NCBI GenBank assembly: GCA_965208525.1
Contig: OZ242340.1
Location: 2,711,737 to 2,775,736 of the forward strand
Length of the DNA stretch: 64,000 bases
DNA from: Pseudomonadales bacterium
GTDB lineage: Bacteria; Pseudomonadota; Gammaproteobacteria; Pseudomonadales; Azotimanducaceae
Direction: 5' to 3'
In this document: positions 1-41,726 of the stretch, piece by piece
How positions within the stretch are numbered: the stretch's first letter is position 1
Layout: each line of letters begins with the position of its first letter
Program-made: the position numbers and the translations under genes
The notes under the pieces: model-generated
Told to the model about the DNA's origin: nothing
Seen by the model: the letters and a program-made list of their open reading frames with translations, nothing else
Databases searched by the model: none

Positions 1-239
1 GCGCGTCCGACAGCTTCGATGCTGCCTTCCCGCACCTCGGCGCGATCTGGCTGGACTTGCCCCACGCCGAGCAACAGGCAGACGGCACCTACGGCGTCTT
101 CGTCGCAAACCTCGATGACTCGCTAGGAGGCTGCGCCGTACAGTCAGTTGCAGACTCCCAGCAAGGCGTCAGGGCGATCCGCAAGGTGGCGCGCAGTAGG
201 GTTATTCCGTTGATAAACAATGCATTGAGTCCACACTGA
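1..239 (+). CDS. 3' end of an unidentified gene running in from the window edge (C-terminal fragment)
   Basis: Frame is open from position 3 to a stop at 237-239 (ORF track 57..239 is its tail). No recognisable family from the ~79 aa visible. Confidence 0.3.
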   Translation, partial: ASDSFDAAFPHLGAIWLDLPHAEQQADGTYGVFVANLDDSLGGCAVQSVADSQQGVRAIRKVARSRVIPLINNALSPH

Positions 240-363
240 GCGTGTCGCTGACGCTCCCGGCGTCTCGCCGGAATGCGGCAGGCAGCACAAGGTTTTGTGG
301 GGCATGTTGGATTCCCGTTCGACGTGGGCGTAGACTTCGGCAACCGTTCGCCGGAGTCCGACC

Positions 364-20820: not shown

Positions 20821-21750
20821 TCACCGGGTGAGCGTCCGAGCCACTCGAAAACCGACGTGAATCAGACGCATGTGCGGTGCGAGCCGGAGGCGGTTGGCGG
20901 CACGCATGGTTCTCGTGTTGTTGAACCAGGAGCCTCCACGCACCATCCGCCTCATGCAGTCGCCCGTGACCCATGCAGACCCGTCAAACGGTGCCCCCGT
21001 GTAGCTACCGTTCAGACAGTCCTCTACCCACTCCCAAACGTTACCGTGCATGTCGTGGAGCCCGAAACCATTCGTCGGAAACGAACCTACAGGCACCGTT
21101 TGCCCAAGGTCCTGCGGACTCCCGCAGCCATCGCAATTCGCCCGGTTCATCCCCACCTCGTCACCCCAGTGATACTTCGTCACCGTTCCCGCCCGCGCCG
21201 CGTACTCCCACTCCGCCTCGGTCGGCAGCCGATAATGTGCCCCTGTCTGCATTGACAACCACTCGGCGTAATCTTGGGCGTCGTCCCACGACACGTTGAT
21301 CATCGGCAGGCGCCCCCGCCCCCAGGCCGCGTCGTCCACCTGCACTGGGAGCGAGAAGCGGTCGTAATCCTCGAACGTCACCTCGTACACGGACAGCGCG
21401 AACGGCGCCGCTATCACCACTTCGTGGACGGGCGCCTCGTCCGCCACGCACGCCGCGTCCGACAGGCAACCCATGTGAAAGCGTCCGGCGGGGACCACCA
21501 CCATCGCCGGTCCTTCCCCGCCCCCGCTCAGGCGGTCCTGGAACACGCAGCCAGGAACAACTGGTCCGGATCGCGACCCTCGACAGCGCGCTTCGCCAGT
21601 CTCGAGCGGCCCGGCCTGCACTCCCTTTCCAGCGCCGTCGCGCTGCTCCCACGTAGAATCTTCGTATTCTCCGCCCGCTCCGTCCGCACTTGCCACCAGC
21701 GGCAGAGCCGCTGCAAACGCAGCTACGCACCACGCCACCTGACCCCTCAT
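20821..21750 (-). CDS. Secreted formylglycine-generating-enzyme (SUMF1/FGE) domain protein
   Basis: Signal peptide 'MRGQVAWCVAAFAAALPLVASA'. The FGE-sulfatase domain motifs 'RGGSWF', 'GFRVAR' and 'HDMHGNVWEWV' are present. Confidence 0.8.
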   Translation of the reverse strand: MRGQVAWCVAAFAAALPLVASADGAGGEYEDSTWEQRDGAGKGVQAGPLETGEARCRGSRSGPVVPGCVFQDRLSGGGEGPAMVVVPAGRFHMGCLSDAACVADEAPVHEVVIAAPFALSVYEVTFEDYDRFSLPVQVDDAAWGRGRLPMINVSWDDAQDYAEWLSMQTGAHYRLPTEAEWEYAARAGTVTKYHWGDEVGMNRANCDGCGSPQDLGQTVPVGSFPTNGFGLHDMHGNVWEWVEDCLNGSYTGAPFDGSAWVTGDCMRRMVRGGSWFNNTRTMRAANRLRLAPHMRLIHVGFRVARTLTR

Positions 21751-22085
21751 GCCTTCGTGCCTCCCCACCTCCATGCAAGACGAGCCGCCCAACGCCTCGA
21801 GGTGCATGACTTCGTCCCTTCACCACGACTGCGACGGCCGGCCGCCGGAGTCAACACGCCGCTGACAGACACGCGTATCTCGGACATCAGGCAGCCTCCT
21901 GAAGCGTAGCGAAGTGGCCGCGGGGCCTGTGCGTACGTTCCACATCGTGCGAGGTTAGCGTAGCGCCTAGTTTTTCTGGGCGATGTGAGTATGTCGTCCA
22001 GGGCGGCGTCGCACTCGACAGCGCCCGGCACTACGTTCGTGGCGCGATATGCTCAAGGGGTCAGGTTGAGGACGTCGAGGGGAGC

Positions 22086-23285
22086 ATGGACATCGAGCGG
22101 CGGTTTCGTCATGCGTTCGGCACCCGCATCGAGGTCGAGGCGCTATTGGCCGAGAGTGGGGCCGGCGTGCGCGTGACGGGCATCGACTTGGGTGAGCCCC
22201 TGCTTCCCGTGCAGGTGGAGTGCCTGCTCGACGCGCTCGCGCATCGGCGCATCCTCTGCCTTGCCGGACAGAATCTCGCCACCTTTTCGCTCCAGCACTT
22301 CGAGCGCTTCGCCAACCATTGGGGGGCGCCGGTGCCGCATCCGAGCAACTTCCTGCGTGGAGGCAAGCCGGCGCAGATGGATGGCGACAGCCTTGGTGCC
22401 ATCGAGTGGCGGCCGCTGGAGCAACGCATGGTATCGGCGGTGAACGGAGCGTTCCCTGATCAGTTGCAGTGCCTGCCGCACGAGTCGCCGGCGGTCTTGG
22501 TGGTTTCCAACTTCCGCAAACCGCGCGCAGGGGGAGGTAGCGAAGGCAACTCGCTGCGCATCGGTGGCGGTGGCTCGTGGCACACCGACATCGAATACGA
22601 GCCGCTGCCCATCTATGTCTCCATGTTCCTGGTGCATCGGATGCCGACAGCCTGCACCCGCCAAGACGATTGGATCGACGCGGATGCGGTCGGTCACGGA
22701 CCGTACTTCGAGGGTGCCGATGCGACGCTGACTCGACGGCGCGAGGCCCTGCCCCGCAACGCCGAAACCTGCTATGCAGACACCGCAGCCGCCTTCGCCG
22801 CGTTGCCCAAGCCGCAGCAAGAACAGTTGCTTGGCGTGCGCGTGCGCCGTCGCCTCAACGAAGGCGACCCCGGCTGGCTCGCGCCCCTCGTGCGCACCAA
22901 TCCGCGCTCCGGCCTGCGCTCCCTGCACAGCCCCGTGTGGGCATCGCGGCCCAGGGTGCGTCCGCCCATCGAGGTTGAGGGCATGTTGGCGGAGGAGTCC
23001 TGCGCATTCCTGGACGAGCTCGAAGCGCACGTGTTGAAGCCGGAGTTCCGCTACGACCACCCGCATGTTTCGGGCGACGTGACCATCTGGGACAACTACA
23101 TGACGCTGCACAACTCGCCGCCCATGAAGGTTGGCATCGACGATGTGGCAGACGCGCGGCTGCTCTATCGGCTGAGTTGCAAGGGCTCGCCGGCGCTGCG
23201 GCTGCCTCGCCGCGACCTGCCTGAGTGGCTGGCGACGCACATTCCCGGCGGCTATGCGACGCCGGACCGGTTGCTGGCGAGCTGA
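22086..23285 (+). CDS. TauD/TfdA-family Fe(II)/2-oxoglutarate dioxygenase
   Basis: 'WHTDIEYEPLP' (H-x-D) and 'IWDNYMTLH' are the 2-His-1-carboxylate facial triad pattern of TauD-like enzymes. Confidence 0.75.
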   Translation: MDIERRFRHAFGTRIEVEALLAESGAGVRVTGIDLGEPLLPVQVECLLDALAHRRILCLAGQNLATFSLQHFERFANHWGAPVPHPSNFLRGGKPAQMDGDSLGAIEWRPLEQRMVSAVNGAFPDQLQCLPHESPAVLVVSNFRKPRAGGGSEGNSLRIGGGGSWHTDIEYEPLPIYVSMFLVHRMPTACTRQDDWIDADAVGHGPYFEGADATLTRRREALPRNAETCYADTAAAFAALPKPQQEQLLGVRVRRRLNEGDPGWLAPLVRTNPRSGLRSLHSPVWASRPRVRPPIEVEGMLAEESCAFLDELEAHVLKPEFRYDHPHVSGDVTIWDNYMTLHNSPPMKVGIDDVADARLLYRLSCKGSPALRLPRRDLPEWLATHIPGGYATPDRLLAS

Positions 23286-23307
23286 TCGCAGACCAAGCGG
23301 GAAACCC

Positions 23308-24210
23308 ATGGACGACGAAGAGAAGTACCTGTTCGACCTGCGCGGCTACATCGTCGTGCGCAACGTCTTGTCGGCCGAACAAGTGGACGATCTGTCTAGC
23401 CGCCTCGAGGCTCATCGGGAAACGCATGGCCGGCGTCGGCTGGGGTCGGACCGCACGATCTTTGCCGACGAAAACGATCCCGCATGGGCTGCCCCATCCC
23501 TGCTCGAATGGGGCGGAACCTACATCGATCTCATCGATCTGCCGGTGATCGTGCCCTACCTTGAGGCGTTGCTTGGCACCGGCTATCGACTCGACCACGA
23601 CTACATCAACGTGGTCAACGCCGAGCATCCGAGCCAGCTTTACCTGCACGGTGGCGGCCAAGGCGCGGGAGGGCCCCAGGATGTCGTCGGGCCGACGGAC
23701 GGCGGCCAGTGCTACTACCACTACAACAACGGCCGCTTCTTCAATGGCTTGGTCACGGTTGCCTTCGAGCTCAACGATGTGCCGCCGGGGGCCGGCGGCT
23801 TCGCCTGCGTCGCCGGCAGCCACAAGGGCAACTTCCCGCTGCCGCCCGTCTGGCGCGTGAGCAAGAAACAGGCTGAGATTCCCGACTGCGTGGACCGGGT
23901 GGCTGCCGACGCCGGCGACGCCATTGTCTTCACCGAAGCCTGCGCCCACGGCACGGTGCCGTGGGAAGGCCACGGCGAACGCCGCACGATTTTCTACAAG
24001 TACTGCCCCCACGCGGTGGCATGGGGCCCGTGCTACTACAACGCCGACCACTACGACGACCTCACCGAACGCCAACGGGCGATCCTGATGCCTCCAAGCG
24101 CCTTCGGCCCCCACAGCCGAACGGCGGTGATCTGGAGGAAGGCACAGGAGGAACAGGTAGAACTGGCGCGCTTGCGGGAGGAAGTGGCAACGCTGCGCGC
24201 AAGGACTTGA
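23308..24210 (+). CDS. PhyH-family Fe(II)/2-oxoglutarate dioxygenase
   Basis: 'KYLFDLRGYIVVRNVLSAEQVD' is a PhyH N-terminus, with 'HLDHDYINV' and a later 'FTEACAHGTVPW'. Confidence 0.7.
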   Translation: MDDEEKYLFDLRGYIVVRNVLSAEQVDDLSSRLEAHRETHGRRRLGSDRTIFADENDPAWAAPSLLEWGGTYIDLIDLPVIVPYLEALLGTGYRLDHDYINVVNAEHPSQLYLHGGGQGAGGPQDVVGPTDGGQCYYHYNNGRFFNGLVTVAFELNDVPPGAGGFACVAGSHKGNFPLPPVWRVSKKQAEIPDCVDRVAADAGDAIVFTEACAHGTVPWEGHGERRTIFYKYCPHAVAWGPCYYNADHYDDLTERQRAILMPPSAFGPHSRTAVIWRKAQEEQVELARLREEVATLRART

Positions 24211-24255: not shown

Positions 24256-27200
24256 TTACGGCGTGCCGCAGCTTGCGCCCTCGTAAACACCCACGTCGTC
24301 GATGTCCACGTCGGCGGAGCTTTGCGCGAAGTCGAAGGCGACGCGGCCGGTTAGGTCGGTTTCCTCCACCGTGAAGGTGTGGCGGAAGCGTGCGTAGGAG
24401 GTGGTGAGTTCGGCGCGGAACTGGCCGCCGGAAATGTTGCTCCAGTTGTCGAGGTTGGTGTCCATGTAGGCGGTGATGTGGCGGCTCGAGGTGGCCTTGG
24501 CGCGGTAGCAGAGGGTGTACTCCTGGCCGCCGATGACCATCACCGAATGGCTGATCTGGGCGTGCCAGGGCTGCTCGGAAGACTCGCGCAGATTCACTCG
24601 CACCGCGCCATTTCGCACTTCGATGGAGTCTGTCGCGATCTCCACCGTGTTCCAGTTGTCGCGAAACTGGCCCTGGTTGTTGAACGTGCCGCCGCTGGTG
24701 ATGAGGTTGCCGCGCCGTGGTCTGAGCGCCGTCTGTTCCGAGAAGAACAGCATGTCGTTGCTGAAGAGCCCTTGCCGGTTCTGCAACTGCAGGAAGTGCA
24801 GGCCGCCATGCGTCGGCGCCCGGGCGAGGGTGACGAGGAACACTTCGTCGTCACAGGCCGGCAGGTCGCCGGATTCGCAAGCGAGGGTGGCGCTCGCCTT
24901 GCGTCCGTCCACGAAAACGGTTGCGCCGGACTCGATGTGGCGGGCATTGAAGCGCAGTGTGAGTTCGCCCGCAAGGAAGGGGATGTCCACGCCTCGGGTC
25001 TGCGCCTCGATCTCGCCAACGGGCCACAGCGCCGGCTGGGCGTGGTCGGAGGTGGTGTTGACGCCGGCACGGGCCGTGATGGTGAGGAGCAGACTGCCGG
25101 CGGCGGCGTCGCGGACGATGCGCGCGCGGCTTAGGGCCAGGCGAGGATCGCCCGGCCGGTTGCGGTAGCGCGACTTGCGGTATTCGAGCGCAACCGGTGT
25201 CGCCGCGCCGTCCTCGTCGAACCGCAGTCCTTCCGCCTGGAGCATCACCGCGCCCTGATTGGCGGAGCGTTCGAGCGCCCCGAGCATGTGCGCCGTCTGC
25301 GCAAGTTCTGCGGTGTCTTCGTTCAGCGTCACCTGGCGGGCGAAGCTGCCGGAGAAGCCGGTGCTGCCTTCGAGCACCATGTCCCAGATTTCGTCGGACG
25401 CGCCGGCCAGGATCCACATGTCCCGCTCCGGGAAGCTCGTGTCCATGTTCACGAGCTGCAACAGGTCAATGATGTTGAGCCGGGCTTGGGGCGTGATCAT
25501 CCAGCGTTCGTAGGCGCCGCGCCAAGTCGGTGCCTCCATGCCGGTTCCGGGCGTGTTGGTGCTGACCAGGAACGGCATGCGATGGCAGGCGCCGCAGGTC
25601 TGCGTGCCGGTGTTGGGCTCGGACGTGTCGTTGATGAAGTTGAACTCGAAGAAGCCGTCCTGGGCGCTTTGGCTGAGCACGTTGTGGTAGGCGCGACTCG
25701 GTGCCGGTGCGAACGGCACGCTCAAGAGGTACTCGGCGAGGGCGTCTCGGGCCGCGGCATCGAGCAGCCCCAGCTTGCCCTCGTCGTTTGCGGGGCAGTT
25801 GCCCACATCGCACATGGTGGTCGCCATGCTTCCGTCCACGAGCACGCGGGTGCAGCTTGCCGGGTCTTCGATGGAGCAGTTGGGCTCTACCGGCGCGTTG
25901 ATGGACTGGGTGTTGTTGCCGCCGTAAGGGTCGCCGGGAATGCCGTCCCAATGGTAGGGCTGGGTATCCCGCAAGCCTTTGGCCGGCATGGTCAGGCGGG
26001 GCGGAATCTGGGTGCAGCCGTCCACGTCGCAAACCGGCGTTTCCAACACCCAGATGAGTTGGTCGGTGTGGTTGTCCGGGTGGCAGCTCTCGCAGGAAAA
26101 GGTGCCGGTGGAGGAAGCGTCGGCATCGTTGAAGGCCATGCGGCCTTGCTTGACGATTTCCGGCGTCGGGTCGGCGAGCGTGACGGTGCGCAGCAGTGCC
26201 GGGTTGGCAGTGTCGGCAAGGTTGACCTGCGAGACGGTGTTGGCGACGGCGTTCAACACCCATGCGTGTCTCAGGGCCCCCGTTCGGTCGGACACCAGCG
26301 CGACGCCGCGCGGCGTGGACTCGACCGAGACTCGACCGAGCACTTCGCCGGTGTCGGCGTCCATCGTGAAAAGCTTGTCGGAGCCGGCTGCGGTGACCAC
26401 GAGGGTCGAGTCGTCGGGACTGACCTGGATACCGAAGGGGGTTGCCAGTGCCTGTCCCGTCTCAGGGTGCGAAGGCGGCAGCGGTTCGAGATCGAAAAAG
26501 GTGGGTACGCCGCAGCGCACCGAGCAGTCCACCCGAGTGATCTGGTTCAGGAAGGCGCGGTTCTCCATCTCCGCGAGGCCATGGCCTTCGGTGCCGGCAC
26601 GTCCATTCTCGACGTTGCGGGCGTCGGTCTGGGCGATGAAAACGCGCCCTTGGCTGTCGATGGCGAGGCCGTAGAGCAGGGTGCCCAAGGATTCGACGAT
26701 CTGCTGCGGACGATCCGTGCGGGTGTTGAAGACAAACATGTCCCGATCCGGCAGTTCCGGGTTCTTCACGATGTCGGCGTCGTAGTGGGTAGAGAGCACG
26801 TTGTTGTTGGTGAATACGTGCTCGACGGCATCGAACGTGCACGTGTCGCCGTCGATGTCGTCCTCCAGGCAGCCGGAAAGCTGGCTCTGGTTGTTGGACT
26901 CGAATGGAAGCACGAACAGCCGGTCGCCGTGAACGGCCAGCGCCCGCGGCTCCTGGGCGCGAATGGGTAGGTGTCCGGCAACCGAACGCGTCGCCACATC
27001 GATGATGGCGACGCGGTTGGCGGGCGATAGCGCGACGTAGGCTTTCCTGCTGTTGCTGGCGAAGGCGATGCCCACCGGCTCGTCGAAGTTGGTGGCGTAG
27101 GTGCCGGCGTCGAGGTCCTGAACCGTATGCACCACCTGATGGAACGTGCTGCTCGTTGGACGGGCGTCGATCACGCTCACAGAATCCGAGACGTGGTTGA

Positions 27201-27582
27201 CGACCCACACTTCCCGCCGATCGGGGCGCACAGCAACGCTCACCGGATCGACTCCGACATTGATGCGAATCACGACCGCGCCAGTTCTGGCGCGGATTAC
27301 ATCGAGCGTGTCCGCCGGCGTGTTGACCACATAGACATAGCCACGGCTGTAGGCGATGGGGTTCGCGTGGGGACTCGCGAAGGTGGGGTGCCCCACATTG
27401 TCGCTGATGGCAAGCTGGACGCCGGCATTGGCGTACGCCGGGCCGGCCGACATAAGCGCCGTGATGAGCCACAGCAAACCGCCACGGACGGGCGCAAGAA
27501 GCCGTCCGCCTATGGGCTCGTCGCTGGCGATCCGCACCACGAAGCCAAGGCCTTGGAGAAGACGACGTCCGAAACGTAGCAC
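24256..27582 (-). CDS. Large secreted multidomain protein: YVTN-type beta-propeller, then a di-haem cytochrome-c-peroxidase-like region (two CxxCH), then a C-terminal CBM4/9-like carbohydrate-binding module
   Basis: Signal-like 'LLWLITALMSAGPAYA'. Repeats of the 'YVYVVN...VSVIDA' beta-propeller type. 'FSCESCH' and 'TCGACH' are ~130 aa apart. The C-terminal ~150 aa resemble a beta-sandwich CBM. Confidence 0.65.
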   Translation of the reverse strand: MLRFGRRLLQGLGFVVRIASDEPIGGRLLAPVRGGLLWLITALMSAGPAYANAGVQLAISDNVGHPTFASPHANPIAYSRGYVYVVNTPADTLDVIRARTGAVVIRINVGVDPVSVAVRPDRREVWVVNHVSDSVSVIDARPTSSTFHQVVHTVQDLDAGTYATNFDEPVGIAFASNSRKAYVALSPANRVAIIDVATRSVAGHLPIRAQEPRALAVHGDRLFVLPFESNNQSQLSGCLEDDIDGDTCTFDAVEHVFTNNNVLSTHYDADIVKNPELPDRDMFVFNTRTDRPQQIVESLGTLLYGLAIDSQGRVFIAQTDARNVENGRAGTEGHGLAEMENRAFLNQITRVDCSVRCGVPTFFDLEPLPPSHPETGQALATPFGIQVSPDDSTLVVTAAGSDKLFTMDADTGEVLGRVSVESTPRGVALVSDRTGALRHAWVLNAVANTVSQVNLADTANPALLRTVTLADPTPEIVKQGRMAFNDADASSTGTFSCESCHPDNHTDQLIWVLETPVCDVDGCTQIPPRLTMPAKGLRDTQPYHWDGIPGDPYGGNNTQSINAPVEPNCSIEDPASCTRVLVDGSMATTMCDVGNCPANDEGKLGLLDAAARDALAEYLLSVPFAPAPSRAYHNVLSQSAQDGFFEFNFINDTSEPNTGTQTCGACHRMPFLVSTNTPGTGMEAPTWRGAYERWMITPQARLNIIDLLQLVNMDTSFPERDMWILAGASDEIWDMVLEGSTGFSGSFARQVTLNEDTAELAQTAHMLGALERSANQGAVMLQAEGLRFDEDGAATPVALEYRKSRYRNRPGDPRLALSRARIVRDAAAGSLLLTITARAGVNTTSDHAQPALWPVGEIEAQTRGVDIPFLAGELTLRFNARHIESGATVFVDGRKASATLACESGDLPACDDEVFLVTLARAPTHGGLHFLQLQNRQGLFSNDMLFFSEQTALRPRRGNLITSGGTFNNQGQFRDNWNTVEIATDSIEVRNGAVRVNLRESSEQPWHAQISHSVMVIGGQEYTLCYRAKATSSRHITAYMDTNLDNWSNISGGQFRAELTTSYARFRHTFTVEETDLTGRVAFDFAQSSADVDIDDVGVYEGASCGTP

Positions 27583-27722
27583 AGTTGGTTTCGAGCGGGC
27601 AAACGGTTGACTGCGATGCGCCTCTGCACCTCGCGCCCAGAAACGGCCACCATGAAACTCGTTCGCATTGCCTCCGTGGGCGCAAGGTATAGTCTGGCCA
27701 CGCTCCCGGATGAGGTGCGGCG

Positions 27723-28751
27723 TTGCGAATCGGCTTGATGGGGCTTGGACATGTGGGGCGCCAGATCTACGGCTTGGCCCTGGGCCAGCCCGACTGCGAG
27801 GTGGTGGCGGTTTCGGACATCGGCCAGCCGGGAATCCTCCACCACCTGCTGGCGAAGACGCTGCCGAAGGGCACGTCGGTACGTCTTGTCGGGAACTACC
27901 TCGAAGGCAAGGTCGATGGCAATGCGGACCCGGTTGCCCAGACCCGCCTGATGGCGGCAGAACGGCCGGAGGAGATCCCCTGGGACCTGCTTGGTGTCGA
28001 CCTCGTGATCGACGCCACGGGCCGCTTCCGCTCCGCCGAGGAACTCGCGCCCCATCTAGACAACGGCGCTCGCCGGGTTTTGGTCTCCAGCCTCCCGGAG
28101 GGCGACGTGGATCGGGTGGTGCTGAGTGGCGTGAACGATGGCGACGCGAAGAGTGCGGATCGCATCGTCTCTGCCGGCTCCGCGTCCACCACTGCGCTCG
28201 CGCTTGCTCTCAAGGTACTGGTGGACGAGCGCCCCATCGTCCATGCCACGATGACATCGGTGCATGCCTACACCGGCGACATGAGCCTGCAGGACCATGC
28301 GGCGAGCGACTACCGACGCAGTCGCTCCGGAGCGCGCAACATCATCCCCAACGACACGCTTGCCCCGGCTTGGGTGGAGCGCGCCCTACCCGCCGTGCGC
28401 GGCAGGTTAAGCGGATTCGCGCTGAACGTGCCGGTGGGCGAGGGCTCCCTGATGGATCTCACGGTGGCCTATCGGGAGCCCGCGCCGGAGCGGGATGTCG
28501 TCAACGGCCTCTTTGCCGCCGCGGCCCAGAGAGACCCGCGCCGCCTCGCCGTCACGGACGATCCCGTCGTCTCGTCGGATGTTCTCGGCAGCGCTGAGTC
28601 GATCTTGGTGGACCTGCAAGGCACGCTCCGTTCGGGCGGCCGGCTGGTGAAGGTGCTCGGCTGGCACGAGAGCCTGGGCCATGCCCGCAGCATCCTGGAC
28701 TTGGCTCGCCTTTACGCCGGGCTCGACTCGGCTGCGGCGGCTTCGGGGTAG
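27723..28751 (+). CDS. GAPDH-like paralogue lacking the catalytic cysteine (SNASCTTN is replaced by SAGSASTT)
   Basis: Rossmann motif 'MRIGLMGLGHVGRQIY' and 'TSVHAYTGDMSLQD' are conserved. The active-site segment reads 'IVSAGSASTTALAL'. TTG start. Confidence 0.75.
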   Translation: MRIGLMGLGHVGRQIYGLALGQPDCEVVAVSDIGQPGILHHLLAKTLPKGTSVRLVGNYLEGKVDGNADPVAQTRLMAAERPEEIPWDLLGVDLVIDATGRFRSAEELAPHLDNGARRVLVSSLPEGDVDRVVLSGVNDGDAKSADRIVSAGSASTTALALALKVLVDERPIVHATMTSVHAYTGDMSLQDHAASDYRRSRSGARNIIPNDTLAPAWVERALPAVRGRLSGFALNVPVGEGSLMDLTVAYREPAPERDVVNGLFAAAAQRDPRRLAVTDDPVVSSDVLGSAESILVDLQGTLRSGGRLVKVLGWHESLGHARSILDLARLYAGLDSAAAASG

Positions 28752-28763
28752 GGGAGGGCAGTC

Positions 28764-29765
28764 GTGCGAGTGGCCATCAACGGTTTTGGGCGCATCGGTC
28801 GGGCCGTGTTCCGCATCGCCGAGCGGCAAAGCGATGTCGAGGTGGTAGCGATCAACGATCTCTTCGACCACGACATGCTGGCTTACTTGCTGACCTACGA
28901 CACCGTGATGGGGCGCTTCGACGGCGGCGTGGAAATCACGGACGGCGAACTGGTGACGCCGCACGGCCGCGCCCGCATGGTGAGCGAAGCCGATCCGTTG
29001 CGCCTGCCTTGGGGCGAGTTGGAGGTGGATGCGGTGGTGGAATCCACCGGCGTCTTCCGCAAGCGCGAGCAGATCGCAAGGCATCTCGATGCGGGTGCCC
29101 GCCGCGTCCTGCTTACCGTGCCGGCAGGCGACCCCATCGACTACACGGTGGTGCTTGGCGTCAACGACGAAGGCTTGCTGCCCGAACATCGTCTGGTCTC
29201 CAACGCGAGCTGCACCACGAACTGTCTCGCCCCCGTGGCGCGGGTGCTCCACGACGCCTTCGGCATTCGCGAAGGCGTCATCAACACGGTGCACGCCTAC
29301 ACCAACGACCAGAGCCTCGCCGACGTGCCGCATTCGGACTGGCGACGCAGCCGAGCGGCGGCGGAGAACATCATCCCCACCTCCACGGGCGCGGCGCGTG
29401 CCGTGGGCGAAGTGCTGCCGGAACTCAAGGGCAAGCTCGACGGCATCGCCTCCCGCGTGCCGGTGCCGGACGGCTCGGTGGTGGACCTGTTCGCCGAACT
29501 CGAAACGGAAACCAGCATGGACGAGATCCACGACGCCGTGCGAGCCGCAGCCGATTCACCCCGAATGCAAGGCGTGCTGTCGTTCACGGACGAACCCGTG
29601 GTGTCCTCCGACGTCATCGGCAATCCCCACTCCTCCATCTACGACGCCTCCTTCACCCAGGTGAGCGAAGGCCGCTTCCTCAAGGCGCTTGCCTGGTACG
29701 ACAACGAATGGGGCTACTCCAACCGCGTCTGCGACGTGCTGCGCCTGATGGCGAATTTCGACTAA
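28764..29765 (+). CDS. gapA: Glyceraldehyde-3-phosphate dehydrogenase (type I)
   Basis: 'MRVAINGFGRIGRAVF', 'SNASCTTNCLAP', 'TVHAYTNDQ' and 'WYDNEWGYS' are all canonical. Confidence 0.93.
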   Translation: MRVAINGFGRIGRAVFRIAERQSDVEVVAINDLFDHDMLAYLLTYDTVMGRFDGGVEITDGELVTPHGRARMVSEADPLRLPWGELEVDAVVESTGVFRKREQIARHLDAGARRVLLTVPAGDPIDYTVVLGVNDEGLLPEHRLVSNASCTTNCLAPVARVLHDAFGIREGVINTVHAYTNDQSLADVPHSDWRRSRAAAENIIPTSTGAARAVGEVLPELKGKLDGIASRVPVPDGSVVDLFAELETETSMDEIHDAVRAAADSPRMQGVLSFTDEPVVSSDVIGNPHSSIYDASFTQVSEGRFLKALAWYDNEWGYSNRVCDVLRLMANFD

Positions 29766-29928
29766 AGCCGGCCCTGCGCCGCTCGGGGAAGGCAAAATGC
29801 CGCCCGTGGAGGGCATTCGCAGGTCGATTGCGTACGTCGAAGGGGCCCCTTCTTGGAAGAGCATCTCGCGCTCGATGCGAGCGGCGGTGCCGGCCAATGG
29901 TGGGTTGGGTGTTAAGGGCAACGTAGCT

Positions 29929-30537
29929 GTGCCAGGAAACGTGATCGTGCTCGACGCGATGGGGGTGATATATCGCGCCCGGGATGATGTGGCGGAGCTC
30001 CTCGTCCCGTTCGTGCAGCGGCATCGCCCGTCCGTTCCCGCCAGTGAAGTGACGGCGCGTTATACGGAGGCGAGCCTCGGCCGGATCGACGCAGACGCGT
30101 TCTGGAGGTCGCTCGGCTTGCCCCCTGGCGTCGAGGACGACTACCTGTCTGCCCACCGTCTCACCGACGGCGTGCTCGACTTCCTTGCGCTGACACGAGA
30201 CTCGGACATCGACGTGTGGTGCCTGTCGAACGACGTGTCGCGGTGGTCGATCAAGCTCCGCGAGCGCTTCGGACTAGACGGTATCTTCTCGGGCTTTGTC
30301 ATCAGCGGCGACATCGGCCACCGCAAGCCATCCACCGCAGCATACCGCTTCCTCCTGGACCGCCTCGGTACGACACCGCAGCTATTCGTCGACGACCGGC
30401 CCCGCAACGTCGCCGCCGCCCGCAACTTGGACATTCCCTCGGTGTGCTTTGGCCCGGGCTGCGGCGAAACCGACTGCGTGGCAGACTTCGCGGAACTGGC
30501 ACGGTCACGGAGGAGCATGTGGCGTCGTCGCGCTTGA
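29929..30537 (+). CDS. HAD-superfamily hydrolase
   Basis: 'VIVLDAMGVIY' (motif I) and 'FVISGDIGHRKP ... LFVDD' (motifs III/IV). The ORF track starts at 29797, but that gives 50 aa before motif I; the GTG at ~29929 is more typical. Confidence 0.6.
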   Translation: MPGNVIVLDAMGVIYRARDDVAELLVPFVQRHRPSVPASEVTARYTEASLGRIDADAFWRSLGLPPGVEDDYLSAHRLTDGVLDFLALTRDSDIDVWCLSNDVSRWSIKLRERFGLDGIFSGFVISGDIGHRKPSTAAYRFLLDRLGTTPQLFVDDRPRNVAAARNLDIPSVCFGPGCGETDCVADFAELARSRRSMWRRRA

Positions 30538-30660
30538 CCGGCATTCCGCAGTTGCCCTTCTGCGGCCCATCGGCGCAGGTGGGCGACGGACGCTTCCTCA
30601 AGGCTCCCTTGGCAGAATGCATGTCAAAGCTTGGTTTGCAGCCTGCGGAGGCGTCAAGGC

Positions 30661-31296
30661 ATGGGTGAGTGGCTTGAAGGATTGAGCGCCTTGCAGCAGA
30701 CGCTTCTGGGCGTTGCTGGCTTCTCGACGGGGGTCTATGCGATCCAGACCCTCCTGACGCTTACGGGCGTGCTTGGCGATGCCGATGGCGGCGATGCAGG
30801 AGCAGATGGTGACGGCATCTCCTTCGGCGACCTGTTCACGGTCCGCAATGGCGTCTCCTTTCTCATGGGCTTCTCCTGGGGCGCGCTCATGGCCACCGGC
30901 TGGGGCGTTGCCAATGCGTTTCTGCTGGTCGTGGTGGGGCTGTTCGGCGGCTCGGCCTTCGTCGGGCTCAACCTCGGGTTGCTCGCATTGATGGCGATGC
31001 TCGAGAGTCGCGGCAACGTGGACACGGCGTCAGCGTCCGGTGCTGACGCCACCGTGACCCTGACTGTGCCGGCGTCGCGTCGCGGGGTCGGCAAGGTGAC
31101 CGTAGCGGTGTCGGGTAGGTTGATGGAGTACCACGCCGTCACGGACGACGGCGCGCCGCTTGATCGGGGCTCATCGGTTGTTGTGCGCGAGGTTTCCGGC
31201 AACCAGTTGGTGGTGGGGAGCCGCGTCCCCGGGCAGGAACTCCCGGCAGGGGAAAGCGGCCAGAAGCCGGCAATCGAAACTGGAACGGAGCGTTAG
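30661..31296 (+). CDS. nfeD: NfeD-family membrane protein (short form, OB-fold C-terminus)
   Basis: N-terminal TM helices plus C-terminal 'GKVTVAVSGRLMEYHAVTDDGAPLDRGSSVVVREVSGNQLVV'. Immediately upstream of the flotillin gene. Confidence 0.7.
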   Translation: MGEWLEGLSALQQTLLGVAGFSTGVYAIQTLLTLTGVLGDADGGDAGADGDGISFGDLFTVRNGVSFLMGFSWGALMATGWGVANAFLLVVVGLFGGSAFVGLNLGLLALMAMLESRGNVDTASASGADATVTLTVPASRRGVGKVTVAVSGRLMEYHAVTDDGAPLDRGSSVVVREVSGNQLVVGSRVPGQELPAGESGQKPAIETGTER

Positions 31297-31300
31297 CGTC

Positions 31301-32701
31301 ATGGACTTCACCGTCATATTCGTCGCCGTGCTGGCGATCGTCCTGGTCGTTGCGATCATCGCTGCGGCATCGCGCATCAAGACCTGTCCGTCCGACCAGG
31401 TCCTCGTCAAGTACGGGCAAGTAGGCGGGGACCGCATGGCCAAGGCCATCCACGGCGGCACGACCTTCGTCTGGCCGGTGGTACAAGGCTTCCGCTTCCT
31501 GGACCTCACGCCCATGACCGTGGACATTGACCTGCGCGGTGCCCTCTCGAAGCAGAACATCCGCGTCAACGTCCCGTCGCGCTTCACCTTCGGCATCGGC
31601 ACCGTCGAAGAGCTCATGAACAACGCCGCCGAACGGCTGCTCTCCCTCGACAATCCGCAGATCGAGGACACCGCGAAGGACATCATCTACGGCCAGTTGC
31701 GCGCCACCATTGCCATGATGGACATCGAGGAGATTAACGGCGATCGCGAGAAGTTCGAGTCTCGGGTGCTCGAGAACATCGAGTCGGAGCTGATGAAGAT
31801 TGGCCTCCGGCTCATCAACGTCAACATCTCGGACATCACCGACGAGTCGGGCTACATCGAGGCGCTCGGTCAGCGAGCCGCGGCCGAGGCCATCAACAAG
31901 GCCAAGGTGGACGTGGCGCAGCAGGAGCGCGACGGTGCCGTGGGGTCTGCGGAAGCGGAGCAAGAGCAACGCGTGCGGGTTGCGGAAGCGAACGCCCGAG
32001 CGGTGGCCGGCGAGAATGATGCCAAGGCGGTGGAGGCGTCGTCGCAAGCCGATCTGCGGGAAGCCGAGGCGGAAGCGCGCCGGCGAGGCGATGCCGCCGA
32101 GGCAGTCAAGCACGCCGCCGCCGAGCAGGAGGGCTACAGCGCCGAGCGCGAGGCGGAAGTCGCCCGCGCCGAACGCGATCGAGCGCGGGAGTTTGCCAAC
32201 ATCGTCGTACCGGCGGAGATCGAGCGGGACCGGATCCGCACGGAGGCGGAAGGCGAGAAGCAGCGCGAAGTGCTCGCCGGCGAAGCGGAAGGCGAGGCCG
32301 TCCGTGCCAAGCTTGCCGGCGAGGCCGAGGGCCGCATGGAAGTCCTGACCAAGATGGCCGAGGGCTTCCGCGAGATCGTCGAAGCAGCCGGTGCCGACCC
32401 GGACAAGGCCGCGCGACTCATGATTGTCGACAAGATCGAGGACATCGCAGCCGCTCAAGCGAGCGCCATCAGCAACATCGCGTTCGACAAGGTGGTGGTG
32501 TACGACAGCGGCAAAGGCAACGCGGTCGGCAACTTCCTCGGCGGCCTGACCCAGGCCCTGCCGCCGTTCCACGAGGTTGCCAAGATGGCCGGTGTGGAAC
32601 TGCCGGAGTACTTGGGGCGGATGGCGCAGGTGGCGAACGTGGGCCAGGATGCGGCAGCGTCGCCGCCTGCGGATGCGGACGCGGAGACAGAGAACGAGTA
32701 G
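31301..32701 (+). CDS. floT: Flotillin-like SPFH/band-7 protein
   Basis: N-terminal TM helix, SPFH domain and a long coiled-coil E/A/R-rich region. Confidence 0.8.
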   Translation: MDFTVIFVAVLAIVLVVAIIAAASRIKTCPSDQVLVKYGQVGGDRMAKAIHGGTTFVWPVVQGFRFLDLTPMTVDIDLRGALSKQNIRVNVPSRFTFGIGTVEELMNNAAERLLSLDNPQIEDTAKDIIYGQLRATIAMMDIEEINGDREKFESRVLENIESELMKIGLRLINVNISDITDESGYIEALGQRAAAEAINKAKVDVAQQERDGAVGSAEAEQEQRVRVAEANARAVAGENDAKAVEASSQADLREAEAEARRRGDAAEAVKHAAAEQEGYSAEREAEVARAERDRAREFANIVVPAEIERDRIRTEAEGEKQREVLAGEAEGEAVRAKLAGEAEGRMEVLTKMAEGFREIVEAAGADPDKAARLMIVDKIEDIAAAQASAISNIAFDKVVVYDSGKGNAVGNFLGGLTQALPPFHEVAKMAGVELPEYLGRMAQVANVGQDAAASPPADADAETENE

Positions 32702-36805: not shown

Positions 36806-38236
36806 ATGAAGCTGTTGGTTGCGAACCGTGGGGAGATAGCGATCCGCGTGATGCGTGCGGCGGCGGAGCTGGGGATTTCTACGGTTGCGATTGCGCCGAG
36901 GGACGACGCCGGGTCGCTGCACACGGGCAAGGCGGACGAGTTCGTGACGCTTGAGGGGGCGGGCGCGTCGGCCTACCTCGACATCGGGCAGGTGGTGGGG
37001 GCGGCGCGGGAGACGGGCTGCGACGCGGTGCATCCGGGCTACGGCTTCCTGTCGGAGAACGCGGAGCTGGCGCGGGCGTGCTCCGAGGCGGGGCTGACGT
37101 TCGTGGGGCCGCGGGAGGAGACGCTGCGGCTGTTCGGCGACAAGGCGCGCGCCCGGTCGGCGGCGTCGGCGGCGGGGGTGCCGGTGATCCGTGGCATCGA
37201 CCACGCGGTGTCGCTGGACGAGGCGGAGGCGTTCTTCGCGAGCCTGGGCGCTGGCAGCGCGATGATGCTGAAGGCGGTGGGCGGCGGCGGCGGTCGGGGC
37301 TCGCGCATGGTGGAGCGTGCGGAGGAGGTTGCGGAGGCGTTCGAGCGCTGCCGCGCGGAGGCGGAGGCGAGCTTCGGCAACGGCGAGCTGTACGTGGAGG
37401 AGTTCATGCGCCGGGCGCGGCACGTGGAGGTGCAGGTGCTGGGCGACGGCAGCGGCGCGGCCCAGCATCTCGGCGAGCGGGAGTGCAGCGTGCAGCGGCG
37501 TTTCCAGAAGATCGTCGAGGTGGCGCCGGCGCCGGGTCTTGCCGAGGGGGTGCGGGAGGCGGTGATCGAGGCGGCGGTTCGGTTCGCCTCGGGCGTGGAC
37601 TACCTGAGCGCCGGCACGTTCGAGTTTCTGGTGGACGTTTCGGCGGACGCCTCGGGGGGCGGGTTCGCGTTCATCGAGACGAACGCGCGGCTGCAGGTGG
37701 AGCACACGGTGACGGAGGAGGTCACCGGGGTCGACGTCGTGGCCTCGCAGCTCCGGCTGGCGCAGGGCGCGACGATTTCCGACCTGGGGCTGGACGCGCC
37801 GCCTGCCCTGCGGGGCTACGCGATCCAGTCGCGGGTGTGCATGGAGTCGGTTCGCGAAGACGGTTCCATCGTTCCGACCGGCGGGGTGCTGACGGCGTAC
37901 GAGGCGCCGAGCGGCCCGGGTGTGCGCACGGACGGCTTCGGCTACGGCGGCTACGAGACGAGCCTGAACTACGACCCGCTGCTGGCGAAGGTGATCGCGC
38001 ACTCGCCGTCGCCGGACTTCGGCGACGCCGTCGCCCGCTCGCTGCGGGCGCTGGCGGAGTTCCGGGTCGAGGGGGTGGAGACGAACATCGCCTTCCTCGA
38101 GAGCATCCTGCGCCACCCGGACTTCGCCGCCGCCGAGGTGCACACCCGCTTCGTCGACGAGAACATGGCCAGCCTCGCCGCCGCCGAGCAAGGCGCACGC
38201 TTCGTCACCCCGCCCGGATTCGAGCCGCAGGCGGCA
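36806..38236 (+). repeat. Direct repeat unit A (1.43 kb; identical bar 1 mismatch seen to 40296-41726)
   Basis: Compared by eye across the region. Overlapping spurious ORFs 37078..38340 vs 40568..41830 and 37722..38198 vs 41212..41688 are identical or differ by 1 aa. One substitution was seen (NYDP/NYDS). Confidence 0.9.
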
Positions 38237-40273
38237 GACGGATTCGCCGGTGCCAGAGTCGAGGATGCCCGCGACCCCCTTGCACTTTTCCTGCACGACA
38301 CCCGCGTCAAGTCCGAACAGGACGACGAGGACGAAGCTGAAAGCGGCCCGGTCGTCGTGCCGGCCCCGGTTCCCGGCGAGGTGCGCGCCGTGCATGTCCT
38401 CGCCGGAGACGAGGTGCTGACGGGCCAACCGCTCGCAACCATTCACTCGCTGGAGATCGACCACATCGTTCGCGCTGACGAGGGCGGTGCCGTGGAAACC
38501 GTCGCCGTGGACGCCGGCAATGTCGTCCGCGCCGGCGACTCCTTGCTGCAAATCGTCAAGTCCGACATGGCCGGCCGTTGGGCCGAACCTGCTGCGGAGG
38601 CAGACTTCGACACCCGCCGCTCCGACCTGGCCCTCGTGGACCAGCGCCGCACCTACATCGAAGACGACTTCCGCGCCGAACGCATCGGTCGACGCCACGC
38701 CAAGGAGCAGCGCAGCCCGCGCGAGAACATCGAACACCTCATGGACGGCACCTTCCGCGAGTACGGTCCCCTCGTCACCGCGGCAAGCTGGCAGAAGCAG
38801 GAATGGCTGCGGGAGACGACCCAGGCGGATGGCCTCGTCATGGGCATCGGCAGCATCAACGGCGATCTCTTCGATGCCGACGCCTCCCGCGCGGTGGTGG
38901 TTCACTACGACTACATGGTGGTGGCGGGCACCCAGGGCGGGCGCGGCCACTACAAGCAGGATCGCATCTACGAACTGGCCGGACGCTTCCGGTTGCCCCT
39001 GATCCTCTTTGCCGAGGGCGGCGGCGGTCGACCCGGCATCAGCGGCGGCGAACGGGCAGAAGCCGTGGACATCGCCATCGAGGCGGGGCTGCGCAAGCTT
39101 GGCGAGAAGGCGCCGCCCGGTTCCCGCGCCAGCGCCGTGGACGTGGCCGGTCGCGGCGGCGGGGGCGTGCCGGTGGACTCCTACACCTTCACCAAGCTCT
39201 GCGAGCTGAGCGGCCTGGTGCCCTTGGTGGGCGTCAACTCCGGGCGCTGCTTCGCCGGCAACACGGTGATGCTGGCGTCCTGCGATGTCATCATCGCGGC
39301 GGAGAACTCCACCATTGGCCTTGGTGGCCCTGCCATGATCGAAGGCGGGGGCCTCGGCATCTACACGCCGGAAGAAGTGGGTCCCATGTCCTTCCAGGTG
39401 CCAAACGGTGTCGTGGACATCCTCGTCAAGGACGACGAGGCGGCCATCGAGACGGCGAAAAAATACCTTTCCTACTTCCAGGGCGCGGTGGATAGCTGGG
39501 AGACGCCGGACCAGCGCCGCCTCCGCGCGATCATTCCGGAAGACCGCAGCGCGCTCTACGACATGCGCGAGCTCATCGCCACTTTGGCGGACGAAGACTC
39601 CATCCTCGAAATCCGCGAAGCCTTCGGCGTCGGGATCATCACCGCCTTCATCCGCATCGAAGGCGAGCCGATGGGCCTCATCGCCAATAACCCCGCGCAC
39701 CTATCTGGCGCCATCGACAGCGATGCCGCCGACAAGGCGGCGCGCTTCCTGCAACTCTGCGACACCTTCGACATCCCGGTGCTGTCGCTGATGGACTGTC
39801 CCGGCCTCATGCCGGGGCCGGAGTACGAGCAGGCAGCACTGCTTCGCCACTCAGGCCGCATGTTCGTCACCGGCGCCAACATGACCACGCCCATGTTCGG
39901 CGTCGTGGTGCGCAAGGCCTATGGAATGGGCGTGCGAGCGATGTGCGGCGGCAGCTCGCTGGAACCGTTCTTCACCGTCGCCTGGCCCACGGCAGAGTTC
40001 GCCGACATGACCATCGACGGCAGAGTCAATCTCATGTACGGCGAGGAACTGGCCGCGATTGAGGATGCAGCGGAACGAGAAGCGGTGCACCAACGCCTGA
40101 TGGATGCCCACGTCGATCGAGTGCGCGCGGTGAACGCGGGCGGCACCAACTACGGCATCGACGACGTCATCGACCCGGCCGACACCCGAGCGTGGATCGC
40201 GCAGGGGCTTAGGAGCGTGCCGAAACCCCCGCCGCGGGAGGAAAAGAAGCGACCCAATGTGGACACGTGGTAG
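36806..40273 (+). CDS. Single-chain biotin-dependent acyl-CoA carboxylase paralogue 1 (BC - degenerate BCCP - carboxyltransferase); BCCP lacks the biotin-acceptor lysine
   Basis: ATP-grasp biotin carboxylase (aa 1-450), a biotinyl-like domain with 'ATIHSLEIDHIV' instead of AMKM, and a PccB/AccD-like CT domain ('VVVHYDYMVVAGTQGG', '...RKAYGMGVRAM'). 1155 aa. Confidence 0.85.
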   Translation: MKLLVANRGEIAIRVMRAAAELGISTVAIAPRDDAGSLHTGKADEFVTLEGAGASAYLDIGQVVGAARETGCDAVHPGYGFLSENAELARACSEAGLTFVGPREETLRLFGDKARARSAASAAGVPVIRGIDHAVSLDEAEAFFASLGAGSAMMLKAVGGGGGRGSRMVERAEEVAEAFERCRAEAEASFGNGELYVEEFMRRARHVEVQVLGDGSGAAQHLGERECSVQRRFQKIVEVAPAPGLAEGVREAVIEAAVRFASGVDYLSAGTFEFLVDVSADASGGGFAFIETNARLQVEHTVTEEVTGVDVVASQLRLAQGATISDLGLDAPPALRGYAIQSRVCMESVREDGSIVPTGGVLTAYEAPSGPGVRTDGFGYGGYETSLNYDPLLAKVIAHSPSPDFGDAVARSLRALAEFRVEGVETNIAFLESILRHPDFAAAEVHTRFVDENMASLAAAEQGARFVTPPGFEPQAADGFAGARVEDARDPLALFLHDTRVKSEQDDEDEAESGPVVVPAPVPGEVRAVHVLAGDEVLTGQPLATIHSLEIDHIVRADEGGAVETVAVDAGNVVRAGDSLLQIVKSDMAGRWAEPAAEADFDTRRSDLALVDQRRTYIEDDFRAERIGRRHAKEQRSPRENIEHLMDGTFREYGPLVTAASWQKQEWLRETTQADGLVMGIGSINGDLFDADASRAVVVHYDYMVVAGTQGGRGHYKQDRIYELAGRFRLPLILFAEGGGGRPGISGGERAEAVDIAIEAGLRKLGEKAPPGSRASAVDVAGRGGGGVPVDSYTFTKLCELSGLVPLVGVNSGRCFAGNTVMLASCDVIIAAENSTIGLGGPAMIEGGGLGIYTPEEVGPMSFQVPNGVVDILVKDDEAAIETAKKYLSYFQGAVDSWETPDQRRLRAIIPEDRSALYDMRELIATLADEDSILEIREAFGVGIITAFIRIEGEPMGLIANNPAHLSGAIDSDAADKAARFLQLCDTFDIPVLSLMDCPGLMPGPEYEQAALLRHSGRMFVTGANMTTPMFGVVVRKAYGMGVRAMCGGSSLEPFFTVAWPTAEFADMTIDGRVNLMYGEELAAIEDAAEREAVHQRLMDAHVDRVRAVNAGGTNYGIDDVIDPADTRAWIAQGLRSVPKPPPREEKKRPNVDTW

Positions 40274-40295
40274 GGAAGCAGGGGGAGAGGCAAAG

Positions 40296-41726
40296 ATGAA
40301 GCTGTTGGTTGCGAACCGTGGGGAGATAGCGATCCGCGTGATGCGTGCGGCGGCGGAGCTGGGGATTTCTACGGTTGCGATTGCGCCGAGGGACGACGCC
40401 GGGTCGCTGCACACGGGCAAGGCGGACGAGTTCGTGACGCTTGAGGGGGCGGGCGCGTCGGCCTACCTCGACATCGGGCAGGTGGTGGGGGCGGCGCGGG
40501 AGACGGGCTGCGACGCGGTGCATCCGGGCTACGGCTTCCTGTCGGAGAACGCGGAGCTGGCGCGGGCGTGCTCCGAGGCGGGGCTGACGTTCGTGGGGCC
40601 GCGGGAGGAGACGCTGCGGCTGTTCGGCGACAAGGCGCGCGCCCGGTCGGCGGCGTCGGCGGCGGGGGTGCCGGTGATCCGTGGCATCGACCACGCGGTG
40701 TCGCTGGACGAGGCGGAGGCGTTCTTCGCGAGCCTGGGCGCTGGCAGCGCGATGATGCTGAAGGCGGTGGGCGGCGGCGGCGGTCGGGGCTCGCGCATGG
40801 TGGAGCGTGCGGAGGAGGTTGCGGAGGCGTTCGAGCGCTGCCGCGCGGAGGCGGAGGCGAGCTTCGGCAACGGCGAGCTGTACGTGGAGGAGTTCATGCG
40901 CCGGGCGCGGCACGTGGAGGTGCAGGTGCTGGGCGACGGCAGCGGCGCGGCCCAGCATCTCGGCGAGCGGGAGTGCAGCGTGCAGCGGCGTTTCCAGAAG
41001 ATCGTCGAGGTGGCGCCGGCGCCGGGTCTTGCCGAGGGGGTGCGGGAGGCGGTGATCGAGGCGGCGGTTCGGTTCGCCTCGGGCGTGGACTACCTGAGCG
41101 CCGGCACGTTCGAGTTTCTGGTGGACGTTTCGGCGGACGCCTCGGGGGGCGGGTTCGCGTTCATCGAGACGAACGCGCGGCTGCAGGTGGAGCACACGGT
41201 GACGGAGGAGGTCACCGGGGTCGACGTCGTGGCCTCGCAGCTCCGGCTGGCGCAGGGCGCGACGATTTCCGACCTGGGGCTGGACGCGCCGCCTGCCCTG
41301 CGGGGCTACGCGATCCAGTCGCGGGTGTGCATGGAGTCGGTTCGCGAAGACGGTTCCATCGTTCCGACCGGCGGGGTGCTGACGGCGTACGAGGCGCCGA
41401 GCGGCCCGGGTGTGCGCACGGACGGCTTCGGCTACGGCGGCTACGAGACGAGCCTGAACTACGACTCGCTGCTGGCGAAGGTGATCGCGCACTCGCCGTC
41501 GCCGGACTTCGGCGACGCCGTCGCCCGCTCGCTGCGGGCGCTGGCGGAGTTCCGGGTCGAGGGGGTGGAGACGAACATCGCCTTCCTCGAGAGCATCCTG
41601 CGCCACCCGGACTTCGCCGCCGCCGAGGTGCACACCCGCTTCGTCGACGAGAACATGGCCAGCCTCGCCGCCGCCGAGCAAGGCGCACGCTTCGTCACCC
41701 CGCCCGGATTCGAGCCGCAGGCGGCG
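40296..41726 (+). repeat. Direct repeat unit B of the 1.43-kb BC-domain repeat
   Basis: See unit A. Confidence 0.9.

Follow-up and report, generated by a model that had tools for sequence, protein, structure and literature searches.

Why would a bacterium keep a copy of glyceraldehyde-3-phosphate dehydrogenase (GAPDH) that lacks the catalytic cysteine, and keep it directly upstream of an ordinary GAPDH gene? The question is raised by a 64,000-nucleotide stretch of contig OZ242340.1 (positions 2,711,737 to 2,775,736, forward strand; assembly GCA_965208525.1, Pseudomonadales bacterium), referred to here as the window. The upstream gene, gapX (27723..28751, plus strand, TTG start), encodes GapX, a type I GAPDH paralogue of 342 residues without the catalytic cysteine (a pseudo-GAPDH). 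The downstream gene, gapA (28764..29765, plus strand, GTG start), encodes GapA, a canonical phosphorylating type I GAPDH of 333 residues. It is very probable that GapX is functional, a GAPDH paralogue without thioacyl chemistry that is tied to gapA. That it acts as a non-catalytic subunit of a hetero-oligomeric GAPDH together with GapA is the preferred reading, held with middling confidence.

Active site and predicted fold of GapX

The initial annotation described two proteins that align end to end, the second of them a bona fide GapA, and both statements are borne out. GapX residues 1-335 pair with GapA residues 1-333 at 39% identity (E = 3e-67), and both proteins match the Pfam domains Gp_dh_N and Gp_dh_C, GapX with 51.3 and 109.1 bits, each over the cut-off. 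GapA scores 414.4 bits on the type I GAPDH equivalog model TIGR01534, above the cut-off of 367.2, and its catalytic set is complete (Cys149, His176, Arg195, Arg231 and Asn313; residue numbers are those of Geobacillus stearothermophilus GAPDH, assigned by column-by-column mapping, unless GapX's own numbering is evident). GapX reaches 212.6 bits on TIGR01534 and lies below the cut-off of every GAPDH and Epd equivalog model, with 142.9 bits against 530.55 for the Epd model TIGR01532 and 150 against 539 for NF010058. On the ArsJ-associated GAPDH model NF033735 it scores 152.6 (cut-off 450).

Alignment and residue mapping identify the upstream gene product as a full-length GAPDH paralogue without a thiol nucleophile, as had been proposed, and the motifs quoted for it are genuine. 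Positions 28170..28205 (plus strand) encode the former nucleophile motif SAGSASTTALAL (Ser150-Leu161 of GapX), which stands opposite SNASCTTNCLAP of GapA. Ala154 takes the place of Cys149 and Ala158 that of Cys153, and Thr150 is replaced by Ser. The roles assigned to these and the other GAPDH positions discussed here are established GAPDH enzymology. Taken together with the sequence, that enzymology upholds the earlier claim that GapX is unable to form the thioacyl intermediate. The essential cysteine with its thiohemiacetal, and the role of His176, are treated in a 2025 review of the GapDH superfamily (PMC12041015).

Loss of the cysteine is, as far as can be read from the sequence, only one part of a wider remodelling (R231N, N313S, deletion of Glu314, N6M). 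The Ps site is incomplete: the Arg195 equivalent is present, and the substrate-phosphate ligand Arg231 is replaced by an invariant Asn235 in the motif ALNVPV (28419..28436, plus strand). The motif WYDNEWGY has become WHESLGH (28662..28682, plus strand) through Tyr311→His, Asn313→Ser, deletion of Glu314 and Tyr317→His, and the nicotinamide-positioning Asn313/Glu314 of the W-Y-D-N-E stretch are gone. Further substitutions are N6→M, R10→H, P188A, a changed His190, T206N, G209→L and A213W. The initial annotation had recorded none of R231→N, N313→S, the Glu314 deletion, Y311/Y317→H, N6→M, R10→H or G209→L. It had correctly noted that the dinucleotide-binding GxGxxG and the histidine of 'TSVHAYT' are kept: 'GLMGLGHVGR' and 'TSVHAYT' are both present, and His181, the equivalent of the catalytic base His176 (28263..28265, plus strand), is invariant in the family. 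Asp32, Ser148, Thr179, Asp181, Arg195, Arg197 and Thr208 are retained as well. With Cys149, Arg231 and Asn313/Glu314 lost, GapX is incapable of thioacyl catalysis.

A substitute cysteine near the active site was not found. The single cysteine of the window's GapX, Cys25, lies in the NAD domain and is not conserved, and the GapX family alignment contains no conserved cysteine column anywhere; no neighbouring cysteine can therefore stand in for the nucleophile. It has also to be considered that GapX might still be a GAPDH or an erythrose-4-phosphate dehydrogenase that uses another nucleophile, such as Ser153, Ser155 or a distant cysteine. The two serines (positions 148 and 150) are invariant and flank the lost cysteine, and His181 is kept. 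This explanation is nevertheless very improbable: besides the lack of a conserved cysteine, Arg231, Asn313 and Glu314 are lost too, GapX falls far under all GAPDH and Epd cut-offs, and the G. stearothermophilus C149A/C149S proteins, which are its best structural matches (1NPT, 1NQ5), serve as inactive mutants.

The AlphaFold2 model of GapX, built on a 94-sequence alignment, has a predicted local distance difference test score (pLDDT) of 87.7 and a predicted template modelling score (pTM) of 0.87. Its best match in the PDB is a GAPDH (TM 0.83), the top entry being the engineered C149A mutant 1NPT, which is also among the top sequence matches of GapX. The only low-confidence region is the S-loop (182-203). 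In GAPDH this loop is ordered through inter-subunit contacts in the tetramer.

Conservation of GapX and its pairing with gapA

A protein search with GapX returned more than 1000 relatives, and the 120 listed ones were examined. All 120 (57-95% identity) are cysteine-less, with the motif SAGS[A/G/P/S][S/T]T. When one genome per species was scanned, gapX was found to be carried by 409 species genomes. Among the 80 resulting loci that were listed and retrieved, nearly all are assigned to Pseudomonadales or unclassified Gammaproteobacteria, and the carriers include Pseudohongiella, Ca. Azophilus, Porticoccaceae, Cellvibrionales and many sponge-symbiont bins. The nearest relatives of the window pair (95%) are sponge metagenome-assembled genomes (MAGs). 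In 75 Pseudomonadales pairs, residue 149 is Ala in 70, Gly in three, Ser in two and Cys in none.

The ratio of nonsynonymous to synonymous substitution rates (dN/dS) is 0.10-0.29 for GapX and 0.07-0.16 for GapA (Nei-Gojobori, 12 locus pairs). Across 62 paired sequences, conservation of at least 90% is reached by 151 of the 334 GapX columns and by 211 GapA columns. In GapX conservation peaks in the former active-site helix (0.91) and the S-loop (0.90), the overall value being 0.73. The residues G7, G9, G12 and D32 are invariant in 94 GapX sequences, and the replacement residues N6M, H142D, A213W, R231N, Y311H and Y317H are invariant or nearly so; R10, N313 and residues 207-211 vary. The C-terminal tail ('GLDSAAAASG') is short, variable (conservation 0.46) and cysteine-free. 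To judge from these alignments, the pocket of GapX is rebuilt under constraint rather than abandoned.

These results bear on the recent pseudogene that the initial annotation had raised as a counter-explanation. It is rejected, together with an artefact: the open reading frame (ORF) is intact, codon usage is native, dN/dS is low and the gene occurs in many species, remaining intact and cysteine-less in the 120 listed homologues and the 80 loci. A decaying duplicate or an assembly artefact would account for the missing cysteine only. The distribution over 409 species genomes, a dN/dS of about 0.14, the intact frame with native codons (G+C content at third codon positions, GC3, is 0.83 for GapX and 0.84 for GapA, similar to the remaining window genes) and the neighbour-joining tree described below, which does not group GapX with its neighbour gapA, leave this explanation a negligible probability.

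The pairing with gapA is close to absolute. A cysteine-bearing gapA lies directly downstream on the same strand in 78 of the 80 loci, and the other two end at a contig edge. The genes flanking the pair are not conserved beyond its closest relatives, and the differing flanks of the compared loci revealed no conserved third gene or pathway. The gapX-gapA pair is a self-contained two-gene module.

In the window a Shine-Dalgarno-like GAGGT can be read at 27712..27716 (plus strand), 6 nt (27717-27722) ahead of the TTG start of gapX. The gapX stop codon (TAG, 28749-28751) is followed by a spacer of 12 nt (28752..28763, plus strand), which holds a GGAGG (28753-28757, plus strand), the ribosome-binding site of gapA, directly past the stop and 6 nt ahead of the GTG start of gapA. 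In related loci the second gene starts immediately at the stop of the first or overlaps it. A consensus scan of 27400-30700 matched no sigma-70 promoter, and no terminator-like site was detected between or after the two genes in the same interval. This arrangement suggests that gapX and gapA would share one transcript and be translationally coupled. Stop-codon read-through from gapX into gapA was considered and rejected: the two genes share a frame here, separated by TAG and 12 nt, and this is not kept in the closest relatives, where the start offsets are 1039, 1037, 1041 and 1035 nt. The frame relation varies and, because it is not conserved, carries no significance.

Some individual loci deserve mention. 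Contig OZ244830.1 (Ca. Azophilus sp.) carries three separate GapX-GapA pairs (L010, L016 and L057); in the last of these, a frameshift or an error of long-read assembly could explain why the gapA match breaks at 7340/7342. A contig labelled as a Flavobacterium sp. MAG (JBLHIH010000092.1, L046) carries a typical Pseudomonadales-type pair and is probably mis-binned rather than a case of horizontal transfer.

The wider family and the candidate role of GapX

A second protein search, and a profile searched against 1.84 billion representatives, placed GapX as one branch of a larger family of divergent GAPDH-like proteins with the hallmarks N6M, R231N, E314G and G209N/W. Its members come from Acidobacteriota (Thermoanaerobaculia) and Desulfobacterales and are common in soil, sediment and marine metagenomes. 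Residue 149 is Cys in 106 of the 119 best wider-family members and Val, Asn, Ile, Gly or Ser in the other 13. By these alignments it is R231N, not loss of the cysteine, that marks the wider family.

Here too the paralogue precedes a canonical gapA immediately, in three genome places and in all 49 metagenome or genome loci in which both genes are fully readable. Residue 149 of the upstream gene in these 49 loci is Cys in 28 and Ser, Val, Asn or Ile in 21. Together with the 75 Pseudomonadales pairs this gives 124 scorable pairs, in which the two genes of a pair differ consistently. At position 231 the upstream protein never has Arg (Asn in 75/75 GapX and in 45/49 wider-family proteins) and the downstream protein always does. 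At position 149 the upstream residue is other than Cys in 96 pairs, and the downstream one is Cys in all 124. At position 6 the upstream protein has Met in 116 pairs and never Asn, which is found downstream in every pair. The functional linkage with gapA suggested in the initial annotation is strengthened by all this, since the pair is the sole conserved unit over 80 loci and a family of several phyla.

In a neighbour-joining tree, which is rough and possibly subject to long-branch effects, GapX clusters with the R231N paralogues and GapA lies inside the canonical GAPDHs. GapX as a recent tandem duplicate of the neighbouring gapA is rejected, as the tree separates the two. The GapX and GapA subtrees are congruent, and at least five Cys/non-Cys transitions at residue 149 are mapped among the upstream proteins.

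Two wider-family paralogues show a side effect on annotation. P0321 (L084, 5001-6014) and P0311 (L082, 5001-6017) have Cys149 replaced by Ile or Val, and P0321, the protein with Ile, scores 375.5 bits on TIGR01534, past the cut-off of 367.2. Proteins without the nucleophile can therefore be annotated automatically as 'type I GAPDH'.

Among the roles offered in the initial annotation (a regulator or scaffold, an NAD binder, or altered chemistry), the evidence leans towards a non-catalytic partner subunit. This preferred reading of GapX as a GapA subunit combines the observations as follows. GapX has a full GAPDH fold without the thiol nucleophile, the substrate-phosphate arginine and Asn313/Glu314. 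It would assemble with GapA into a hetero-oligomer, for example A2X2, in which its dinucleotide fold, anion-site residues, His176 and S-loop would bind NAD(H), triose phosphate or the neighbouring subunit, and it would thereby adjust how active, cooperative or stable the catalytic subunits are. In evolutionary terms GapX is the Pseudomonadales branch of a phylum-spanning R231N family that is always found directly upstream of gapA and in which the nucleophile was repeatedly dispensable. A subunit is favoured because the gene arrangement across phyla, the co-duplication of the pair and its co-divergence are subunit-like, because the nucleophile was dispensed with repeatedly in the upstream gene only, and because the strongly conserved S-loop is an element structured by inter-subunit contacts. 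That GxGxxG and Asp32 never vary and that the anion-site residues are kept points to continued binding of a dinucleotide, a phosphorylated ligand or both by GapX, which would fit an allosteric or sensing role.

The same residues can be read differently. GapX could be a stand-alone homo-oligomer, co-expressed with GapA, that has a new thiol-independent activity or binds a metabolite or NAD(H) in triose-phosphate metabolism; its new active or sensor site would then be formed by His181, His315, His320, Glu316, Asp146, Trp217 and Asn235. This explanation is consistent with a remodelled site that shows conservation and no relaxation, with near-invariant replacement residues and with the retention of GxGxxG, D32, H176, T179, R195/R197, S148 and T208. 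Some clades of the GapDH superfamily have moreover lost the cysteine and remain enzymatically active (PMC12041015). On the other side, a strict adjacency to gapA across phyla, often with overlapping genes, and the co-duplication of the pair typify subunits and not consecutive enzymes. Residue 149 can be A, G, S, P, V, I or N, as though its chemistry were irrelevant, and the genes around the pair point to no conserved pathway for a candidate substrate. A stand-alone GapX is the main alternative, though rather unlikely.

Less probable again is a moonlighting protein that works outside glycolysis, in nucleic-acid binding, surface attachment and adhesion or redox signalling, and uses the gapA promoter just for its expression. 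Moonlighting is well known for GAPDH proteins, and no conserved partner besides gapA was found. What is best conserved in GapX, however, is the former active site with the S-loop and not a new surface, and promoter sharing alone would not be expected to keep gene order and spacing absolutely constant from order- to phylum-level divergence. The protein also has no signal peptide or extra domain, its 342 residues aligning end to end with GAPDH. We consider this role improbable.

Several points weigh against the subunit reading itself. Adjacency and coupling of the two genes are also compatible with mere co-regulation. Shared phylogeny confounds the correlation of pairwise distances between the partners (r = 0.93, GapX being the faster-evolving by a factor of about 1.7). 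The S-loop of GapX is unlike that of canonical GAPDH at two positions, Pro188→Ala and His190→Gly, and these changes could alter the classical interface; the variable R10, N313 and residues 207-211 may mean that NAD binding is weakened. Wider-family members with both Cys149 and His176 could still be enzymes, and the ancestral role was not necessarily non-catalytic. Finally, a clean natural GapX-GapA fusion was not found among the candidates inspected.

Of those candidates, a 680-residue ORF in L027 is an alternative-frame artefact, and P0271 (673 residues, on a 579-kb contig) is a frameshift-merged gene call. The latter consists of a Cys149→Ser paralogue, about 90 out-of-frame residues and a complete canonical GapA, and looks like a frameshifted tandem pair. 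P0124, P0133 and P0154 each hold several GAPDH units, retain every cysteine and are unrelated to GapX.

Extended beyond the window, the proposal would be that in several phyla, and in most Pseudomonadales outside the model genera, GAPDH is an obligate heteromer and not a homotetramer, made of a canonical catalytic subunit and a paralogous R231N subunit that can do without its nucleophile and has lost it several times, the dead subunit being allosteric or NAD(H)-sensing. This wider claim is tentative, and somewhat less likely to be right than wrong. That such a heteromer would amount to a hard-wired 'half-of-the-sites' GAPDH is speculation.

Genomic surroundings and known systems

Upstream of gapX and divergent from it, an 1108-residue protein is encoded on the minus strand (24256-27582), with YNCE/lactonase-type beta-propeller repeats and a CxxCH stretch resembling di-haem cytochrome c peroxidase. 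It is common to the five closest loci only. Downstream of gapA, on the plus strand, follow a HAD-family hydrolase (29797-30537), a membrane protein without Pfam match (30631-31296) and an SPFH/Band-7 (flotillin-like) protein (31160-32701), none of which is conserved beside the gap pair in other loci. The Pfam-scanned neighbours of the pair in the window are the HAD hydrolase, an SPFH/flotillin pair, an SDR protein and the beta-propeller/haem protein. No arsenic-resistance genes are among them, a result of that scan and not of a search aimed at arsJ.

Elsewhere in the window another tandem paralogue pair is found. Two slightly overlapping genes (36806-40273 and 40257-43517, plus strand) each encode a single-chain protein of biotin carboxylase, biotin carboxyl carrier protein and carboxyltransferase (1155 and 1086 residues). 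Three family-III CoA-transferase genes follow (43857-48597, plus strand), the last of which (794 residues) has a doubled domain. PhyH-type/TauD-type dioxygenases and an FGE-sulfatase-domain protein are encoded at 6977-8086 (minus), 20821-21807 (minus), 22086-23285 (plus) and 23254-24210 (plus). Such gene content is typical of sponge symbionts, and it agrees with the sponge origin of the MAGs closest to the locus. A phage-type tyrosine integrase (Arm-DNA-bind_3, Phage_int_M, Phage_integrase) lies at 364-1515 (plus strand) and has an unusually high GC3 of 0.95. The G+C content of positions 1-4000 is 72-73%, versus 64-70% elsewhere; an integrated element may have its border here.

GAPDH ranks among the most intensively studied enzymes, and the bacterial form is generally regarded as a homotetramer whose subunits are all alike and active. 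A full-text literature search, with subscription-only literature outside its reach, found neither a cysteine-less nor a heteromeric bacterial GAPDH described, and the 2025 superfamily review (PMC12041015) describes no such protein. In public records GapX-type proteins are named "glyceraldehyde-3-phosphate dehydrogenase" or "GAPDH NAD-binding domain-containing protein", and metabolic reconstructions count two GAPDHs where probably one is catalytic. The conserved two-gene GAPDH module, with its probable nucleophile-less subunit, is present in hundreds of species. Gammaproteobacteria of ecological importance from the sea and from sponges are among them, and relatives of the module occur in Acidobacteriota and Desulfobacterales. 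If the subunit reading is true, the pair offers a natural system for half-of-the-sites reactivity and inter-subunit communication in GAPDH. Cultured Pseudohongiella species exist, which makes the hypothesis directly testable.

Among known proteins GapX is closest to type I GAPDH (GapA; TIGR01534), whose two-domain fold and length it shares and with which it can be aligned end to end at 34-39% identity. It differs by the loss of Cys149, Cys153, Arg231, Asn313 and Glu314 and by N6M, P188A, Y311H and Y317H. Epd (TIGR01532) and the ArsJ-associated GAPDH (NF033735) are divergent gammaproteobacterial paralogues with altered function, and GapX matches both models; these proteins, however, use Cys149, which GapX does not have. 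On the residues and model scores compared, GapX does not classify as an active type I GAPDH, an Epd or a GapB-type subunit. The laboratory mutants C149A and C149S of G. stearothermophilus GAPDH (1NPT, 1NQA, 1NQ5 and 1NQO) have the same nucleophile substitution as GapX and bind NAD+ according to their PDB titles. Apart from that substitution they have an intact site, Arg231 and Asn313 included, whereas GapX is natural, selected and extensively remodelled.

A precedent for a GAPDH of two paralogues is the chloroplast GapA/GapB enzyme of land plants (A2B2 / A8B8), in which one of the two paralogous subunits confers regulation. Plant GapB is catalytically active and is regulated by a CP12-like C-terminal extension with two cysteines. 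GapX, unlike plant GapB, has neither the catalytic cysteine nor a C-terminal extension with a cysteine pair; a GapX-GapA heteromer is the predicted counterpart.

The trypanosomatid AdoMetDC 'prozyme' and plant PDX1.2/PDX1 are described as systems in which a dead paralogue tunes an active one within a hetero-oligomer (PMC6221367, 10.1101/717082, PMC6829848). They are eukaryotic, not operon-encoded and belong to other enzyme families, and for GapX the complex and any activation are predictions. GapX likewise lacks essential catalytic residues, retains its fold, is under purifying selection and co-occurs obligately with an active paralogue. If the subunit reading holds, the gapX-gapA pair would be a bacterial, operon-encoded addition to this pseudoenzyme-partner paradigm.

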